DNA from: Escherichia phage vB_EcoM_PhAPEC2
Length of the DNA stretch: 64,000 nucleotides
Reading direction: 5' to 3' (one strand)
Sequence record: NC_024794.1
Shown: positions 44,079-64,000 of the stretch, in pieces
Layout of the letters: each line of letters starts with the position of its first letter
Numbering within the stretch: the first letter of the stretch is position 1
Translations under genes and position numbers: made by a program
The notes under the pieces: generated by a model
What the model was told of the DNA's origin: nothing
Databases searched by the model: none
The model's input: the letters and a program-made list of their open reading frames with translations, nothing else

Positions 44079-44549
44079 TTAATCATGTTTCCACACCCCA
44101 TCGGTATTTGACCAAAGTCGCTGATTATCTGATCCTCGCCACAGTTTTTTGGTCGGAAGATTTTTCTCATACTTCCCATCAATAATAACATCAACATATT
44201 TAAGCATTTCTAGTTGTTTAATATCTTCAAACTTATATCCTGTCCACAACCAAATGCTTTTATTGGGATAAAGATTTTTTACTGTTTGAGCAATGCAATG
44301 AATAACATCTCGGTTATCAGGATAGAGAGGGTCACCTCCGGTTATAGTTAATCCTTCTATATAATCATTATTCAAACATTCAATTAATTGTTCTAGTGTT
44401 TCACCAGTGAATGGAGCACCATTTCTAGCATTCCATGTTGATTTATTATAACACCCTTCGCATTTATGCAAACAACCTGTAACGAAAAGAACGACCCTGC
44501 AACCAGGGCCATTCACAAAATCGCAAGGGTAAAATCTATCATAATTCAT
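44079..44549 (-). CDS. nrdG: anaerobic ribonucleotide reductase activase
   Basis: 156 aa; Cys cluster CLHKCEGCYN; adjacent to nrdD. Confidence 0.85.
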   Translation of the reverse strand: MNYDRFYPCDFVNGPGCRVVLFVTGCLHKCEGCYNKSTWNARNGAPFTGETLEQLIECLNNDYIEGLTITGGDPLYPDNRDVIHCIAQTVKNLYPNKSIWLWTGYKFEDIKQLEMLKYVDVIIDGKYEKNLPTKKLWRGSDNQRLWSNTDGVWKHD

Positions 44550-46363
44550 TGGTGTTTAACCCTATGCATGATTTCTTTATTTTTACCGAGATTAAATCCG
44601 CGTTCGTTCGGATTTCCAAGATAACCGCATGTTCTTCTTATGGTGTTCATCTTTTTAGGATCAGTTTCTCCACAAACTGAACAAACAAATCCGTTTTCAG
44701 TAGGAGTCATTTCATGGGTACTTCCACATGTAAAACATTTATCTACTGGCATATTAACACCAAAATAATCTAAATGTTGTGCAGCATAATCCCACACGGC
44801 CTCAAGACCTTTTAAATTGTTTTTCATGTCAGGTAATTCAACATAAGAAATGTGACCACCTGTCGCAATGAAATGATATGGCGCTTCACGAGAAATCTTT
44901 TCAAACGGAGTAATATTTTCTTCTACTGAAACATGGAAACTGTTAGTGTACCAGCCTTTATCGGTAACATCTTTTACGCTTCCATATTTTTCTGTGTCGA
45001 GTTTACAGAAACGATAACACAAGTTTTCAGCAGGAGTAGAATATAAACTAAAAGCAAATCCAGTTCTTTCGGTCCACTGTTTAAGATGAGCATTCATTTT
45101 AGTTAAAATTTCTTGTCCAATATCACGGCCAACAAGAATATTCAATTCGTGAATACCAATGTATCCTAGGGACACTGAACTTCTACCGTTTTTAAATAAC
45201 TCAATTATATCGTCATCAGGTTTAAGACGAACCCCGAATGCACCTTCTTGGTAAAGAATAGGAGCAACAGTAGCTTTAACACCCTTTAAAGAACTAATTC
45301 TACACATCAAGGCTTCAAAACACAGATCCATTCGTTCATTAAATAGCTCAACAAATTTCTGTTCATTGAACTGTGTTCCAATATAAGAATCTAATGCGAT
45401 ACGAGGAAGATTCAGTGTTACAACGCCAAGATTATTACGACCGTCAAGAATTTCATTTCCAGTTGAATCTTTCCATACGCTCAAGAAACTACGACAACCC
45501 ATTGGAGAAACAGGAACAGATGAACCAGTGATAGCTTTATTATTCTTAACCGAAATAATGTCAGGATACATTCTTTTGCTTGCACATTCTAATGCAAGTT
45601 GTTTAATATCATAGTTCGGATCATCTTTATAAAGATTAACACCTTCTTCAACAAACATAACAAGTTTAGGAAAAATAGGAGTTATTCCATCACGACCAAG
45701 ACCTTTAATGCGGTTTTTAAGAATTGCCTTCTGAATCATTCGTTCAGTCCAGTCAGTTCCTGTACCAAATGTAATTGTCACAAAAGGCGTTTGTCCGTTT
45801 GAACTAAAGAGAGTATTTACTTCATACTCATAAGCTTGAAATGCGTCATAGACATCTTTTTCTGTTTTGGATTGAGCATAATTCAACGCATCAGCGATTT
45901 GCCATTTTTCTGCATCCTCAATATGTTTTGCATAGGTGCGTTTAACATAAGGAGAAAGAACTTTATCGACATTCGCAAATGTAGTTCCGCCATACTGGTG
46001 AGAAGCAACTTGTGCAGTAATTTGTGCCATAATTGCAGTAGCAACACCAATCGATTTAGGCGTTTCAATTTGAGCATTGCCTAATTTAAATCCATTCTCA
46101 AGCATCCCCTTTAAATCGACTAAACAACAATTGGTAAACGGAAGAGCAGGAGAATAATCAATATCATGCATGTGAATGATTCCGCTTTCATGCGCATGCA
46201 TAATAAAAGACGGGACCATATTTTTGGCAATGTGCTTAGACACAATACCAGCCATAAGGTCCCGTTGAGTTGGAAAAACACGAGAATCTTTATTAGCATT
46301 CTCGTTCAAAAGATCTTTATTAGTTTTATAAATTAATCCTTCAATTTCTTTTTCAATTTTCAT
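44546..46363 (-). CDS. nrdD: anaerobic ribonucleoside-triphosphate reductase (glycyl radical), uninterrupted
   Basis: 605 aa; C-terminal zinc ribbon CFTCGS...CSVCG and glycyl radical region RRTCGYLG. Confidence 0.92.
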   Translation of the reverse strand: MKIEKEIEGLIYKTNKDLLNENANKDSRVFPTQRDLMAGIVSKHIAKNMVPSFIMHAHESGIIHMHDIDYSPALPFTNCCLVDLKGMLENGFKLGNAQIETPKSIGVATAIMAQITAQVASHQYGGTTFANVDKVLSPYVKRTYAKHIEDAEKWQIADALNYAQSKTEKDVYDAFQAYEYEVNTLFSSNGQTPFVTITFGTGTDWTERMIQKAILKNRIKGLGRDGITPIFPKLVMFVEEGVNLYKDDPNYDIKQLALECASKRMYPDIISVKNNKAITGSSVPVSPMGCRSFLSVWKDSTGNEILDGRNNLGVVTLNLPRIALDSYIGTQFNEQKFVELFNERMDLCFEALMCRISSLKGVKATVAPILYQEGAFGVRLKPDDDIIELFKNGRSSVSLGYIGIHELNILVGRDIGQEILTKMNAHLKQWTERTGFAFSLYSTPAENLCYRFCKLDTEKYGSVKDVTDKGWYTNSFHVSVEENITPFEKISREAPYHFIATGGHISYVELPDMKNNLKGLEAVWDYAAQHLDYFGVNMPVDKCFTCGSTHEMTPTENGFVCSVCGETDPKKMNTIRRTCGYLGNPNERGFNLGKNKEIMHRVKHQ

Positions 46364-46833
46364 TTTAAACTCTTTCTAAGCTGCTTTTTGAATGAAGCTA
46401 TTAATTGTGTTTTAGTGTCAGATTCATTATATTTAAATCCTCTTTGAAGCATCTCAGTCATCATTTCCTCTTTACCTAGTCTTGAGAACTCTTTAGTTTT
46501 GTCTGGAACAAAATTAGGATGGATATTATTATCAGAATAATCTTGTTTCAAATAAGCAAGAAGAGCTTCAAGCCATTCTAGGTAGTCGACATCACGGCCT
46601 TTAAGACCAGAACGGTTGAACTTATGCTTCATTTGGCCTTCTGCTGCGTTGCACAGATTACAGAGTAATCCACGAACTCTACCTGCTTTTGGCCCGTTTA
46701 ATTCGTGGTCGTGGTCAAGATGGTTACCTTGAACATCAGGGTCTAATTCACGGTGGCAAATAGGACACTTACCGTTCTGTGCATCATAAAATTTTTGTTT
46801 TTCTTCTTTATATTTTGAGCCTGATAATAACAT
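46360..46833 (-). CDS. 49: endonuclease VII (Holliday junction resolvase)
   Basis: 157 aa; zinc site CPICH...HLDHDH; matches T4 gp49 length. Confidence 0.88.
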   Translation of the reverse strand: MLLSGSKYKEEKQKFYDAQNGKCPICHRELDPDVQGNHLDHDHELNGPKAGRVRGLLCNLCNAAEGQMKHKFNRSGLKGRDVDYLEWLEALLAYLKQDYSDNNIHPNFVPDKTKEFSRLGKEEMMTEMLQRGFKYNESDTKTQLIASFKKQLRKSLK

Positions 46834-59536: not shown

Positions 59537-60075
59537 TCTTTTATTTCCAGTAGTTTATTTGATTTAAGGTAATTAGCCTTTTCTAGGACTTCAGAAGCAT
59601 ATTTACTTCCAGCACTTGTCTTCCATCCTGCATTATATGAGGATATAGCTTTTCTTATATCCCCATTATGTATATTTAACCAATAAGAAAATTCGATATA
59701 AGCCCATCTGGCTGAATTAGACCGCTTAGATAGCATTTTCTTAATTTGGGCATCAGTCATATTATAACCAAGCTGGTTAATTCTTGCCCTCATTGTTGGT
59801 AGATAATTTTGGAACATTCCATACGCATGGTGACCTTTCTTATCTTTAAGATTAATACCGGCAGATGATTCCTGCCATAGTATTGCGGCCATTATGTATC
59901 CAAGTCCTTTCTTATGCATATTTTCATGCGTTTTAAATTTTCCGTCCTTAGAAAACTGTTCCCCAAACTGATAAGCATAATTCAAGTTATCGAGTTGGAC
60001 ATTACTAAAAGTATGCTCGGAGCTATGTGCTGATAATGAAAGAGCAAATAGACCAGCGAGTAGTGCTTTTCTCAT
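59533..60075 (-). CDS. secreted lytic transglycosylase-like protein (SLT domain)
   Basis: 180 aa; signal peptide; SLT motifs QESSAG, AYGMFQ, SYNAGW. Confidence 0.6.
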   Translation of the reverse strand: MRKALLAGLFALSLSAHSSEHTFSNVQLDNLNYAYQFGEQFSKDGKFKTHENMHKKGLGYIMAAILWQESSAGINLKDKKGHHAYGMFQNYLPTMRARINQLGYNMTDAQIKKMLSKRSNSARWAYIEFSYWLNIHNGDIRKAISSYNAGWKTSAGSKYASEVLEKANYLKSNKLLEIKE

Positions 60076-60083
60076 GTTTACCT

Positions 60084-60542
60084 CTAGATTTTAATCACTG
60101 CTTTAGAAGCTTTTCCTGGTAGTCGTTTATTGTTAATAATAGCCATTCTGCATTGAAGAGTCTTCATTTTGAATGCTGGATTTTCGCGACAAACTGTAAG
60201 TCCTAACCAAAGATTTCCATCAGTTATTTCTAAACGGCCTGGGCGATATTCGACACCTTCGACAAAATCTTCATCAACATCTGGACGTGCCGGCATTGAT
60301 AAAAATTCTGTAACTTCTTTAACATGATTTTTTACTTTACGAAATAATTCAAAAACGTAATTCTCATCTATTTCTCTTTGGATGGCACGATCTAAGAGAT
60401 GTTGAGAATACTTGATATGAAAGCCTGGTAGTCCAAGAGACTTTGCAGCATCTTTTATACCGGCATTGATTTGACGAAACTCCGTTTCAAAGATTCGACG
60501 GAGTTTATTGCGGCGGATAAAAACGTCTGAATTGATAGTCAT
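60084..60542 (-). CDS. regB: RegB endoribonuclease
   Basis: 152 aa; near-identical to remembered T4 RegB (FIRRNKLRR..EITDGNLWLG..CRMAIIN). Confidence 0.88.
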   Translation of the reverse strand: MTINSDVFIRRNKLRRIFETEFRQINAGIKDAAKSLGLPGFHIKYSQHLLDRAIQREIDENYVFELFRKVKNHVKEVTEFLSMPARPDVDEDFVEGVEYRPGRLEITDGNLWLGLTVCRENPAFKMKTLQCRMAIINNKRLPGKASKAVIKI

Positions 60543-60545
60543 TTT

Positions 60546-60598
60546 GATTTCTCCTCTAGTTGACAGGTCTATAGTAACACAACTAGAGGAGAAGTAAA
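60546..60598 (-). promoter_or_regulatory. early promoter of regB with anti-SD spacer
   Basis: minus strand GTTTAC, TTCTCCTCTAGTTGTGT, TACTAT; 13-bp perfect inverted repeat with the SD-containing leader. Confidence 0.55.
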
Positions 60599-60603
60599 CT
60601 ACT

Positions 60604-60819
60604 TTATTGATAAAATGGAGTTAAAGCCCAAGATTCTTTAGATACCATATTGGCGAAATGCCTCATCTCTTCGATTTGGCGACGACGCTGGTCAGCATAG
60701 TCTTCTTCGCCTTCTTCCTTACAATCTTCAAGGTCTTCTTCAAGATACTTTAAGTATTCACTACAAATTTTGTTGACCTTTTCTTGAAAGTCCAATAACC
60801 CAGTAATACTAGAAGCCAT
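60604..60819 (-). CDS. hypothetical acidic protein
   Basis: 71 aa. Confidence 0.5.
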   Translation of the reverse strand: MASSITGLLDFQEKVNKICSEYLKYLEEDLEDCKEEGEEDYADQRRRQIEEMRHFANMVSKESWALTPFYQ

Positions 60820-61064
60820 TAGTATTTTTCCTCAGGTCGAAATACCGCGCGACAAGCCCACATACTAGCTTCCTTTAGACGCTCTTTAGCGCAGTTAAGT
60901 TGGGACAAAGCCGTCAGAGCTTCAGGAGTATTTGCTGATAATGCTTCTTCTGCCAGGGCGTCCAGAATAAGTCCTAAACGAACTTCGGCATCTTTAATAG
61001 CGTTCACTTTACCGATTTTATCATCGGTATGTGGCTTGTAGCCTTTGATGTCTTCAATCGACAT
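60819..61064 (-). CDS. hypothetical protein
   Basis: track ORF 60819..61232; internal Met (MSIEDIKG) overlaps upstream stop. Confidence 0.45.
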   Translation of the reverse strand: MSIEDIKGYKPHTDDKIGKVNAIKDAEVRLGLILDALAEEALSANTPEALTALSQLNCAKERLKEASMWACRAVFRPEEKY

Positions 61065-61278
61065 AAGGAATTTCCTCATCGGTGGCAAGGTCATATTCGA
61101 CCAATTGGATAGGCTCATTAATACCATATCCACGTACAGTGATATCGGTTGTCGGATATTTTCCAGTAATATCACCCGTTCTAAATGCTTCAATGAATGA
61201 TTGCTCGCCTGAGCAACTAAACCAGGCGGCAAAACATTTTAAAACATCTTCAGACCCTTCTATAACCAATTTAGCCAT
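61054..61278 (-). CDS. hypothetical protein
   Basis: 74 aa; TAATG-coupled to GrcA-like gene. Confidence 0.45.
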   Translation of the reverse strand: MAKLVIEGSEDVLKCFAAWFSCSGEQSFIEAFRTGDITGKYPTTDITVRGYGINEPIQLVEYDLATDEEIPYVD

Positions 61279-61640
61279 TATAGACTCTCAGTAAAGGTAC
61301 GAGCGATAACGTCGCGCTGTTGTTCCGGAGTCAGAGAGTTAAAGCGAACTGCATATCCGGATACACGGATGGTCAGCTGCGGATATTTTTCCGGATGCTT
61401 AACTGCATCTTCCAGAGTTTCACGACGCAGAACGTTAACGTTCAGGTGTTGACCACCTTCAATTTTAACTTTAGGTTGATGTTCAATTTCAATTTCACGA
61501 GCATGCAAACCGTAGAAAATTTCTGGGTCTACAATAGCGTCTTCTTTAAAAGTCTTAGAGACAATAATCCGGGCTTGAGTACCGTCTTCAAAATAAATAG
61601 TGCCTTTATGTGCACCTTCAAGAATTTGATATGCTTTCAT
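61278..61640 (-). CDS. autonomous glycyl-radical cofactor (GrcA/YfiD-like)
   Basis: 120 aa; C-terminus [31 protein letters not shown] is the glycyl-radical signature of PFL/GrcA. Confidence 0.8.
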
Positions 61641-61646
61641 ATAACC

Positions 61647-61955
61647 TCAATTAGAAAATAAATTTATCCAAGATTTTTCTTTAATCAAAAATGGGTCGGA
61701 ATTAAACGCCATTAAACTTTGAGTGATTAATCCCTTAAATGGCCCATCAATAAATTCCATTTTGAAATGCGGAATACTAGTCATCATCCGTGCATTAGGA
61801 GCAGTACAAAGAACCTGCTGCCCGGCGAACGGACCTTTAGTCAAACGATATCGTTTAGGTTTAAAATGGTAAATCTCGTAATTTTCTACAAGAGCCCTTT
61901 TATTGCATACTGGGCTGTTATAACAATACTCAAAAACTTCAATAGTGGTCATCAT
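61647..61955 (-). CDS. hypothetical protein
   Basis: 102 aa. Confidence 0.5.
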   Translation of the reverse strand: MMTTIEVFEYCYNSPVCNKRALVENYEIYHFKPKRYRLTKGPFAGQQVLCTAPNARMMTSIPHFKMEFIDGPFKGLITQSLMAFNSDPFLIKEKSWINLFSN

Positions 61956-62491
61956 TGCATTCCAATCACAAAAAATTGAGGACGAGCATTACCGCCGATG
62001 CAATATTTGCTTTTGCAGCAGTGCTGTACTGTTTTAATGTGGACATTGTAAATCTTATCCATATCGGGAGCTTTAATAGGCTCGTCAATTATATACAGAA
62101 TACGAGAAAGCGTTAATCCACGGAATTTAGAACCTTCATTGCCAATAAAACTACGAACAGAATCAGTAAATAAACGGAATCGAATATCATCGCTAGAATA
62201 ACGAGAAAATTCTTTTTCAATGTTGCCAGCAGAAATTTTAGCATAAGCTGAAGTATTAGAAAGAACAATAACTGTTCCACCGTCGTGCAGCCAATTAACA
62301 GCAAAATTAGTTACTGCGGTCGATTTACCTGATTGTCTGCCGCCGTCTAAACGAAGTGTACAGTACTGCTTGAGTACGTCTTCAAATGGTGGGACATAAC
62401 CATTCTTACAAATTTCTTCTACTCTAGCATCAGAATGGTGTGTAAAAGCATTCATCAGGGATAGATAAGGTCCGGTTAAAAATGTTCTCAT
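61952..62491 (-). CDS. hypothetical protein with P-loop-like motif
   Basis: 179 aa; GGRQSGKST. Confidence 0.5.
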   Translation of the reverse strand: MRTFLTGPYLSLMNAFTHHSDARVEEICKNGYVPPFEDVLKQYCTLRLDGGRQSGKSTAVTNFAVNWLHDGGTVIVLSNTSAYAKISAGNIEKEFSRYSSDDIRFRLFTDSVRSFIGNEGSKFRGLTLSRILYIIDEPIKAPDMDKIYNVHIKTVQHCCKSKYCIGGNARPQFFVIGMQ

Positions 62492-62670
62492 TTAGTTTCT
62501 CTTTTAGATTGGGGCCATTCCGTGGCGCATGAATTGTCCATTTCTGTATTTACCCATTACCGCACTTGGGCTCGACCTTATTACAGGTTGGCGGGAATCC
62601 CTCATAGAATCATGAGGTCCAGGTTGTTCCCATATTATTTAAATGTAAATAGGTCTAAGTATTAGCTTTA

Positions 62671-63249
62671 TTAATTACCACGGGCCGCATTAGCAACGGC
62701 GTAAGCATACTGAACATTAGCGTCCTTAAACGTACCTTTAGAGGTATCTATTTCTGCCTTAAAGCCGCCTTTAGCCATAACATCGGCAAATTCTTTACGG
62801 AAAGCCATTGCATCAAGACCTTTCCATGATGATTTATGCTTGGCAAATTCAAGACCGGCGTAGTTGACAGCTTTAGCCAATTTATTATCAATGACCCATT
62901 TACCGGCTTTAGGCACAAACTTCGGGCCTTTTTGTTTAGAGAACAGTTTTAAATTCCAGCGACGAAGATCACTATCGGCTTTAACAAAAGCTGCGTCTAA
63001 GTTACTAGCAACAACATCTTCAATATGAGCAAATTTAAGTCCGTCAACTTCAATATTTAGATCGTTACGCCAACGTAGTCCTTCCCAAGCGAAGGCTTTA
63101 AAATCAGAAGCTTTTGTGGCTAGATATCGTTCAAGTGGAGCAGTTTTAGGGTCAAAGCCGTTTCCGCCACGATAATTCCACTCGTCCTTATTAATGCCTT
63201 GAGCTTTTCCTGCAAAGGCCTCGGCGATAAATTCTTTATACGTTTTCAT
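62671..63249 (-). CDS. capsid internal protein (IP-type, capsid-targeting leader)
   Basis: 192 aa; N-terminus MKTYKEFIAEA matches the T4 IP capsid-targeting sequence MKTYQEFIAEA. Confidence 0.6.
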   Translation of the reverse strand: MKTYKEFIAEAFAGKAQGINKDEWNYRGGNGFDPKTAPLERYLATKASDFKAFAWEGLRWRNDLNIEVDGLKFAHIEDVVASNLDAAFVKADSDLRRWNLKLFSKQKGPKFVPKAGKWVIDNKLAKAVNYAGLEFAKHKSSWKGLDAMAFRKEFADVMAKGGFKAEIDTSKGTFKDANVQYAYAVANAARGN

Positions 63250-63312
63250 TTTTGTTTCCTTGTTTGTTTTGATAGAGTAATTATACCATATTAATACTTA
63301 AGCGTAAACAAT

Positions 63313-63429
63313 TTAAGCTTTATCGCCAGAAATAATTCCGAAGTTGTTAAAATCGTATCCAATATCGTCAACATCTACTTTAGGACCTTTGGCATCTGCT
63401 TCAATGATAAATTCTTGATACATTTTCAT
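63313..63429 (-). CDS. micro-ORF with capsid-targeting leader (putative internal peptide)
   Basis: 38 aa not in track: MKMYQEFIIEADAKGPKVDVDDIGYDFNNFGIISGDKA; SD TAAGGA upstream. Confidence 0.45.
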   Translation of the reverse strand: MKMYQEFIIEADAKGPKVDVDDIGYDFNNFGIISGDKA

Positions 63430-63435
63430 TTTTCC

Positions 63436-63849
63436 TTAGTAAATTGATTTACCATAGTATTTGTACCAAGTCGGACGTTGAGCAATTTTTTCATCTAAGC
63501 GTGCTTGACTTATCGCAATGGACGCTTCGGACGGGACATAATTATTACGAAATTCGGCAGGGATGTCGGAAATATCCTGGACTGTCGTGTCCTTGATTTT
63601 GAAACCACGTTTCAAACATTCAGCGATTAGCTCGATTTGTCGTAAACGTAAAAATTCGAGTTTGTCGTAAAAGAATGTTACGTGACCTGTGCCTAAGATA
63701 AATGTTGGAGAGATTTTAAAATCCTTTACACGTTTACCATTTTGAACATGTTTACGGACTGCACCGAATACACGAGGTAATTCGCGATACTCAGCCATAA
63801 GATGTTGGTCGGCCAGTTCAGAAACAAGTGTTAAATTGATACGAGTCAT
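63436..63849 (-). CDS. denV: endonuclease V (pyrimidine-dimer DNA glycosylase)
   Basis: track ORF 63436..63861 (TTG artefact start); [31 protein letters not shown] matches T4 DenV; SD GGAGGA. Confidence 0.9.
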
Positions 63850-63851
63850 AA

Positions 63852-63905
63852 TTTCCTCCAAGTAGTTGATGAATGTATAGTATCAAAACTCTTGGAGGAA
63901 GTAAA
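63852..63905 (-). promoter_or_regulatory. early promoter of denV with anti-SD spacer
   Basis: minus strand GTTTAC, TTCCTCCAAGAGTTTTGA, TACTAT; inverted repeat with leader CTTGGAGGAA. Confidence 0.5.
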
Positions 63906-63906
63906 C

Positions 63907-64000
63907 ACTATTTTTCTGAAGCGCCTGAAATATATTTTTCAAGACGTTGTTTCATTAGCGAGCCGTTCTTAGCGATTTCTTCTGGCTTATCGCACATACG
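63907..64000 (-). CDS. 3' end of a gene whose start lies beyond the window
   Basis: open frame running off the right edge, ending ...ISGASEK then TAG. Confidence 0.35.

Follow-up and report, generated by a model that had tools for sequence, protein, structure and literature searches.

The open reading frame at positions 61278..61640 on the minus strand of the 64,000-nucleotide stretch of Escherichia phage vB_EcoM_PhAPEC2 DNA analysed here (NC_024794.1; the window) can be identified as the vs.6 gene of a T-even phage. Its predicted product is an autonomous glycyl-radical cofactor, very likely (probability about 0.85) a spare part that restores the oxygen-cleaved pyruvate formate-lyase (PFL) of the host. 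The gene itself is apparently a chimera, in which an old phage-specific N-terminal half has been joined to a radical domain recently copied from Escherichia grcA by homologous recombination. The gene is already known; its characterisation in T4 dates from 2001, and many records annotate it.

The gene is an intact ORF of 120 codons that opens with ATG at 61638-61640 and closes with TAA at 61278-61280, and it encodes a small stand-alone protein flanked by separate ORFs. A predicted Shine-Dalgarno sequence, GAGG (61645..61648, minus strand), overlaps the TGA stop codon (61647-61649) of the upstream and translationally adjacent vs.7 orthologue (61647..61955, minus strand; PHROG 2049, 2e-48; JS09 and T4 annotation). 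Downstream, the start of the vs.5 orthologue (61054..61278, minus strand; PHROG 1986 and annotation) overlaps the vs.6 stop codon as TAATG. The two overlaps indicate that vs.6 sits packed in a co-directional operon. An ORF of 113 amino acids on the plus strand (61320..61661) is an antisense shadow of vs.6 and was ignored. When positions 60000-64000 were scanned for promoters, seven promoter-like sites were returned against 11.4 expected by chance and none stood above chance, and a terminator scan of the same interval gave weak stems inside coding sequence and nothing else. The GC content of the window as a whole is 0.37.

A stretch of 2.1 kb around vs.6 has 94-98% DNA identity to RB69/JS09-type Escherichia phages (Mosigvirus, Straboviridae), and in Mosigvirus genomes the ORF is often labelled 'autonomous glycyl radical cofactor' with the note 'vs.6'. 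Judged by sequence, the window belongs to an RB69/JS09-like T-even phage of the Mosigvirus lineage and the ORF is the syntenic, positional orthologue of T4 vs.6 (Y06I, NP_049730). The gene order vs.8-vs.7-vs.6-vs.5-vs.4-vs.3-regB is common to PhAPEC2, T4 and JS09, and both regB and the Acb2/Tad1-type vs.4 were recognised by Pfam in the window. The T4 protein also has 120 residues and shares 95% amino acid identity with that of PhAPEC2. Five of the six differing residues lie in the N-terminal half, and the sixth is H73 of the T4 radical domain, where PhAPEC2 and E. coli both have R. The DNA flanking vs.6, however, is only 65-90% identical between the two phages.

The C-terminal half of the protein contains a Pfam Gly_radical domain (PF01228), which scored 67.2 bits where the cut-off is 22.2 (E = 2.1e-18). 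The glycyl-radical fingerprint noticed in the preliminary description proved to be residues 92-116 (61293..61367, minus strand), each of them intact, with RVSGYAV at residues 92-98. The predicted radical-bearing glycine is G95 (codon GGA, 61356..61358, minus strand), which in alignments to 6OWR and 1H16 falls on G102 of GrcA and G734 of PFL (numbering as in PMC12338860). The glycine of the RVSGY motif, on whose conservation the preliminary description had staked its reading, is invariant in an alignment of 67 homologues from diverse phages and bacteria, and so is the whole of R92-N101. Among solved structures PDB 6OWR, which is the autonomous glycyl radical cofactor of E. coli, gave the best match (E = 1.8e-42), and the C-terminal domain of E. 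coli PFL (1H16, residues 696-759) was matched at 3e-26 by phmmer. Other glycyl-radical enzymes matched at 1e-12 or weaker. The C-terminus had been described as near-identical to both GrcA and PFL. This is borne out for GrcA, whose residues 68-127 are 100% identical to vs.6 residues 61-120 over 60 residues, but was too generous for PFL, for which the phmmer alignment falls clearly short of identity and the fold search gave 76%.

Over its full length the protein matched PHROG 1209 (7.7e-63, residues 1-120 on profile positions 1-121). With the bacterial GrcA equivalog model TIGR04365 (spare_glycyl) it scored 158.6 bits against the curated cut-off of 170, with residues 18-120 aligned. The score stays below the cut-off because the N-terminal half is divergent, and the protein is therefore filed in the phage Vs.6/Y06I subfamily represented by PHROG 1209 and not as a strict GrcA equivalog. 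Like E. coli GrcA it is a stand-alone protein of about 14 kDa with the same radical glycine and the same last 60 residues, but it is seven residues shorter, and in its N-terminal half, where 43 of 60 codons have changed, the similarity is weak. With the C-terminal domain of PflB (1H16/2PFL, residues 696-759) it has the fingerprint and the strand, radical-loop and helix layout in common, although there the domain is part of a 759-residue enzyme. Hence the product carries every structural hallmark of the GrcA/YfiD family, and on these sequence comparisons it very probably works like GrcA.

An AlphaFold model built on the 67-sequence alignment gave YfiD (6OWR) and PFL (1MZO) as best PDB matches in Foldseek. 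The C-terminal half of the model reached only moderate confidence (pLDDT 61-78). Residues 1-50 were modelled at pLDDT 87-89 and are beta-rich, and the phage N-terminal half is thus confidently predicted to be a small beta-rich folded unit. In a fold search on this half, the KOW/SH3-like matches were weak (E about 0.06-0.3) and none was meaningful.

The two halves of the gene differ sharply in their relation to E. coli grcA. Codons 1-60 (61461..61640, minus strand; MKAYQILEG...) are AT-rich, with a GC content of 0.34, and can be aligned to GrcA only from residue 18-21 or so. Their nucleotide identity to grcA is 46.7%, 43 of the 60 codons show nonsynonymous differences, dS is saturated and dN is 0.73. 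The last 60 codons have a GC content of 0.48-0.49 and are 96.7% identical to grcA, with six synonymous and no nonsynonymous differences (dS 0.146, dN 0). Base-by-base alignment places the host-identical tract, which comprises the glycyl-radical domain, at 61288..61460 on the minus strand. It begins exactly at the GAA codon of E61 (EGGQHLN...), runs for 173 nt with three mismatches into codon 118 and fades over the last three codons; codons 61-118 share 98% DNA identity with grcA.

Each of 5,426 complete E. coli genomes contains, in grcA, a match of about 97% to the 3' half of vs.6. Of the 81 grcA loci listed from a panel of at least 80 bacterial genomes of different species, K. pneumoniae and Salmonella not being part of it, those of Escherichia were closest to the tract (96-98%). 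Citrobacter was the next genus at 90.6%, and most others lay at 80-87%. Two further genes were considered as donor and rejected. The first, E. coli tdcE, aligns with the 3' half at 75% nucleotide identity as against 97% for grcA; as to the second, pflB, a pflB-type metagenomic sequence is only 86.7% identical to the corresponding tract of a Klebsiella phage described below. T4 vs.6 shows the same chimeric build, its 3' half being 97.8% identical to E. coli grcA. The identity profile of T4 against PhAPEC2 mostly runs at about 65-90%, falls lower where the two genomes are more divergent, and rises to a peak of 95-100% precisely on the host-identical tract.

The N-terminal half is nonetheless a real and constrained coding region, as is indicated by a dN/dS of about 0.12 between PhAPEC2 and T4 and by the MKAYQ start which it has in common with T5-like phages. 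Both halves of vs.6 are under purifying selection. In the searchable literature, a search that did not extend to key T4 reviews, we found no mention of this mosaic structure.

A role for the product can be proposed by analogy with its two best studied relatives. According to PMC8683613, which cites Wagner 2001, the PFL-activating enzyme installs a glycyl radical on T4 Y06I, as it does on E. coli YfiD, and Y06I then makes oxygen-cleaved PFL active again by forming a complex with it. Y06I and YfiD are named there as the only two spare-part proteins reported to be validated. Residues 61-127 of YfiD share the fold of PFL residues 693-759, comprising one barrel strand, the radical loop and a helix, and replace that segment in the damaged enzyme (PMC8683613). 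YfiD residues 1-60 are disordered by NMR and dispensable for catalysis but improve binding and radical installation (PMC8683613). In vivo, the radical resides on G102 of GrcA and is handed to Cys419 of PflB (PMC12338860).

Applied to PhAPEC2, the mechanism would begin with cleavage of active host PflB by oxygen at the radical glycine G734. The small phage protein would then dock on the cleaved enzyme, its C-terminal domain (residues 61-120) taking the place of PflB residues 696-759 or thereabouts, and the host PFL-activating enzyme PflA, a radical SAM protein, would put a radical on G95. Transfer of the radical from G95 to Cys419 of PflB would allow the conversion of pyruvate and CoA to acetyl-CoA and formate to resume. 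These steps come from studies of the two relatives, Y06I and E. coli GrcA, rather than of the PhAPEC2 protein. We nevertheless rate the mechanism as very likely because the inserted domain is exactly the E. coli GrcA sequence. Repair of oxygen-cleaved host PFL, as the preliminary description had suggested, thus finds support in the orthology with a T4 protein reported to do so. Neither a PFL gene nor a PFL-activase gene was found in the PhAPEC2 region examined, which means that the phage must rely on those of the host. The pay-off would be that fermentative production of ATP, acetyl-CoA and formate is sustained during micro-aerobic infection in a host whose own protein synthesis has stopped, since PFL supplied with a part made by the phage would stay active across pulses of oxygen.

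Host PFL is not the only conceivable partner. The protein might serve a broader range of host glycyl-radical enzymes or another one, for example TdcE (2-ketobutyrate formate-lyase), besides or instead of PflB. The alignment of the 3' half to tdcE mentioned above is in keeping with this, GenBank sometimes labels phage homologues '2-ketobutyrate formate-lyase', and repair of other glycyl-radical enzymes by GrcA-like proteins has been raised as a speculation (PMC8683613). However, experimental support exists for rescue of PFL only (PMC8683613), the donor of the tract is grcA and not tdcE or pflB, and the other classes of glycyl-radical enzyme match the phage protein weakly. We therefore consider such a role unlikely. 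A second option, less likely still, is that the protein acts as a decoy or inhibitor that occupies host PFL or titrates the PFL-activase, thereby shutting down or redirecting fermentation. What speaks for it is the phage-specific N-terminal half, which is predicted to be folded where its YfiD counterpart, the part governing binding and activation, is disordered, so that the phage protein could bind differently. But Y06I is reported to reconstitute active enzyme (PMC8683613), the radical domain is without amino acid change from that of E. coli GrcA, and the radical glycine G95, which would not have to be intact in an inhibitor, is invariant, as is its fingerprint.

In the Klebsiella T-even phage PP889492 the N-terminal half of vs.6 has a GC content of 0.36 and the C-terminal half one of 0.57. 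The latter carries the signature LLDAVEH in place of E. coli LEDAVKH; the E. coli and Klebsiella radical domains differ at two residues only (E77L and K81E). A scan of metagenome contigs with a degenerate pattern recovered 77 loci, and one bacterial-type grcA allele, present in 21-24 of the recovered contigs, encodes exactly the GrcA protein of K. pneumoniae (GRCA_KLEP7), in which LLDAVEH is likewise found. The tract of the Klebsiella phage is 93.3% identical to this K. pneumoniae-type allele as against 83.9% to E. coli. A phage-type metagenome contig of 165.7 kb (L102) matches the same allele at 95.0% overall and contains a mismatch-free run of 158 nt that starts from the same GAA codon. For a second phage-type contig (L097) the best match, at 94.4%, was to an allele encoding the GrcA of Raoultella ornithinolytica.

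Searches of the phage records with the 3' halves of bacterial grcA genes gave a corresponding picture. The E. coli query found 627 phage records at 95-99% identity, those listed being Escherichia phages plus one Yersinia-named and one Salmonella-named phage. The K. pneumoniae query found 80 at 95-99%; among the best 30 of these all but one were Klebsiella-named, with KPV15-like genomes of about 165-168 kb. With the S. enterica query no phage record reached 95% or more, the best, at 91.8%, being in E. coli phages. Tracking of the host is thus not universal. Pseudotevenvirus (including RB43), Karamvirus, Slopekvirus, T5-like, Aeromonas, Vibrio and jumbo phages were 70-85% identical to any bacterial allele tested.

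The Klebsiella- and Raoultella-type tracts, which begin at the same 5' boundary, argue for independent replacements of phage sequence by that of the host. That the radical domain has been replaced independently in T-even phages of Escherichia, Klebsiella and Raoultella, always from the same codon, is in our estimate largely shown. On the simplest reading, an old phage gene homologous to grcA has had its 3' half replaced by that of the grcA gene of the resident host, in separate events of which there were at least two and probably three. The direction would have been from host to phage, since codon usage in the tract is that of the host and the tract sorts by bacterial genus. The replacements may be adaptive or a neutral consequence of homology. 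Measured on YfiD, the common 5' boundary falls seven residues into the structured half (residues 61-127). It is also the point from which conservation between phage and host is high enough for recombination. Phage copies of a host metabolic gene with host-exchanged segments, that is mosaic genes following the host, are familiar from intragenic recombination between host and phage in cyanophage photosynthesis genes (psbA). There the gene, the host and the phage family are different, and in vs.6 the exchange is confined to one functional domain with the same boundary codon in three host genera.

A tract so close to host DNA (97-98% identity) looks like a recent pick-up, and in the searchable literature we found no in vivo phenotype of vs.6 in any phage. 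Both would fit captured host DNA without function, a hitch-hiking 'moron' of no benefit to the phage. The distribution and conservation of the gene make this very improbable. A vs.6 homologue was detected by tblastn in 1,587 of 50,697 phage records. The carriers range from T-even-type phages of Escherichia, Shigella, Klebsiella, Enterobacter, Citrobacter, Cronobacter, Yersinia, Aeromonas and Vibrio to T5-like siphoviruses and jumbo phages, and it is the full-length gene, including the non-host N-terminal half, that has been kept. The gene was present in all six T4-like genomes compared in 2006 (PMC1524935). The low dN/dS of the N-terminal half and the intact ORF, tightly packed in its operon, likewise argue against a passenger without function.

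The window also encodes a class III ribonucleotide reductase and its activase, as the preliminary description had correctly recognised at 44079..46363. The reductase gene nrdD (44546..46363, minus strand) was identified by Pfam NRDD (PF13597, 3.5e-171) together with Gly_radical, and nrdG (44079..44549, minus strand) by Fer4_12 (3.3e-48) and Radical_SAM. These matches, like those of vs.6, lie far outside what chance would give. The NrdD of the phage is sensitive to oxygen and, like PFL, is cleaved at its glycyl radical, so that vs.6 might instead supply a spare part for this enzyme. The idea would draw on the presence of both genes in the window, on phages that place the vs.6 homologue beside or between nrdD and nrdG, and on a 2006 comparative paper (PMC1524935) whose authors, going by the Pfam domain in common, guessed at an involvement in nucleotide metabolism. 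Such a direct role is rejected because similarity between Vs.6 and PhAPEC2 NrdD is undetectable (best BLASTP E = 6, off the RRTCGYLG radical loop), the Vs.6 domain being residue for residue that of GrcA and a close match to PFL.

An indirect connection could run through the product of PFL. Most of the class III ribonucleotide reductases characterised so far use formate as reductant, and the NrdD of T4 has been discussed as having a site for it (PMC4493059). Restoration of host PFL by vs.6 would therefore plausibly support the phage's own NrdD. In Aeromonas phage Ah1 the vs.6 homologue directly follows nrdD-nrdG, and in Salmonella jumbo phage PHA46 it lies between nrdD and nrdG. The 2,924 phage records with nrdD include examples from vs.6-carrying groups, namely T-even, T5-like, Aeromonas and Vibrio phages. 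In the PhAPEC2 window vs.6 and nrdD/nrdG are 15 kb apart, so that the link between formate and NrdD is a hypothesis based on synteny in other phages. The joint 'investment' of the phage in nrdD/nrdG and vs.6, proposed in the preliminary description, is a plausible inference. A more far-reaching proposal would be that the tract is repeatedly overwritten by the grcA of the current host as an adaptive fit to the local PFL and PFL-activase, the real job of the protein being to provide PFL-derived formate to phage NrdD. We put this forward tentatively and hold it to be doubtful as a whole.

A repair part for a fermentation enzyme of the host, carried alongside an anaerobic nucleotide reductase of their own, would suit the life of T-even phages in the gut, where oxygen fluctuates. 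The assignment is of value for annotation, as many GenBank records and PHROGs label the family 'hypothetical', 'unknown function', 'pyruvate formate-lyase' or 'acetyltransferase'. The chimeric genes may serve as a natural domain-swap series for the role of the N-terminal half of spare-part proteins, and the host-matching tract would represent a clear natural case, in phages whose DNA is modified, of gene conversion from host to phage that is confined to a single functional domain.

The DNA of vs.6 was compared with E. coli grcA, and approximately 98% identity was observed in the 3' half of the gene (61288..61460, minus strand) and 47% in the 5' half. The host-like tract was of the Klebsiella type in T-even phages of Klebsiella and of the Raoultella type in those of Raoultella, with an identical 5' boundary (loci L004, L161 and L093 together with the phage-type contigs L102 and L097, which carry the Klebsiella-type and Raoultella-type tract, respectively). 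No grcA tract of the Salmonella type was found in the phage collection. On the bacterial side, we observed a grcA copy on a large plasmid or chromid of Klebsiella sp. WOUb02 ('plasmid unnamed4', 275 kb; L082). A contig labelled 'Vagococcus sp. WN89Y' (L062) is probably a contamination or mislabelled, because it is assigned to a Firmicute, yet its grcA is of enterobacterial type and groups with the Klebsiella protein.

The phage-specific half of Vs.6 (residues 1-50, 61491..61640) was predicted by AlphaFold to form a confident beta-rich unit with pLDDT values of 87-89, whereas the N-terminal half of E. coli YfiD has been reported to be disordered by NMR. A fold search with this half returned weak KOW/SH3-like matches and nothing stronger. 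The family, including the gene at 61278..61640 and its counterparts in phage records, is annotated inconsistently. PHROG 1209 carries the label 'unknown function', GenBank entries for the homologues read hypothetical, acetyltransferase, or either pyruvate formate-lyase or 2-ketobutyrate formate-lyase, and the Vs.6 score of 158.6 lies just below the NCBIfam GrcA cut-off of 170.

Among the neighbouring genes, the vs.4 orthologue (60819..~61085, minus strand), two genes downstream of vs.6, matched Pfam Acb2_Tad1_hairpin (1.7e-17), the family of phage cyclic-nucleotide sponges directed against CBASS-type defence. The vs.8 orthologue (61952..62491, minus strand) weakly resembles large terminase of the T4 type in its N-terminal, P-loop region (phrog_2, 2.2e-5; Pfam Terminase_6N, E = 0.0076, under the family cut-off). 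Two further minus-strand ORFs, 62671..63249 and 63313..63429, begin with MKTYKEFIAEA and MKMYQEFIIEA, which are similar to the leader that targets the internal head proteins of T4 and lies at their N-terminus. The longer ORF matches T4 ipIII at 94.5% identity over its 3' end but not over the rest; the shorter one (38 aa) looks truncated. Upstream of regB, 64 nt of intergenic DNA (60537..60600) also matched the T4 denV-ipII intergenic region (84.6%), suggesting a repeated regulatory element.

As in T4, the start of nrdD is overlapped by the gene for recombination endonuclease VII (gp49; Pfam 1.1e-31 and 4.8e-20; 46360..46833, minus strand). In the window, vs.6 and the anaerobic reductase genes are 15 kb apart, whereas in two other phages the vs.6 homologue directly adjoins them, the gene order being nrdD-nrdG-vs.6-nrdC-nrdH in Aeromonas phage Ah1 (L087, 367..3384) and nrdD-vs.6-nrdG in Salmonella jumbo phage PHA46 (L088, 1177..3824).
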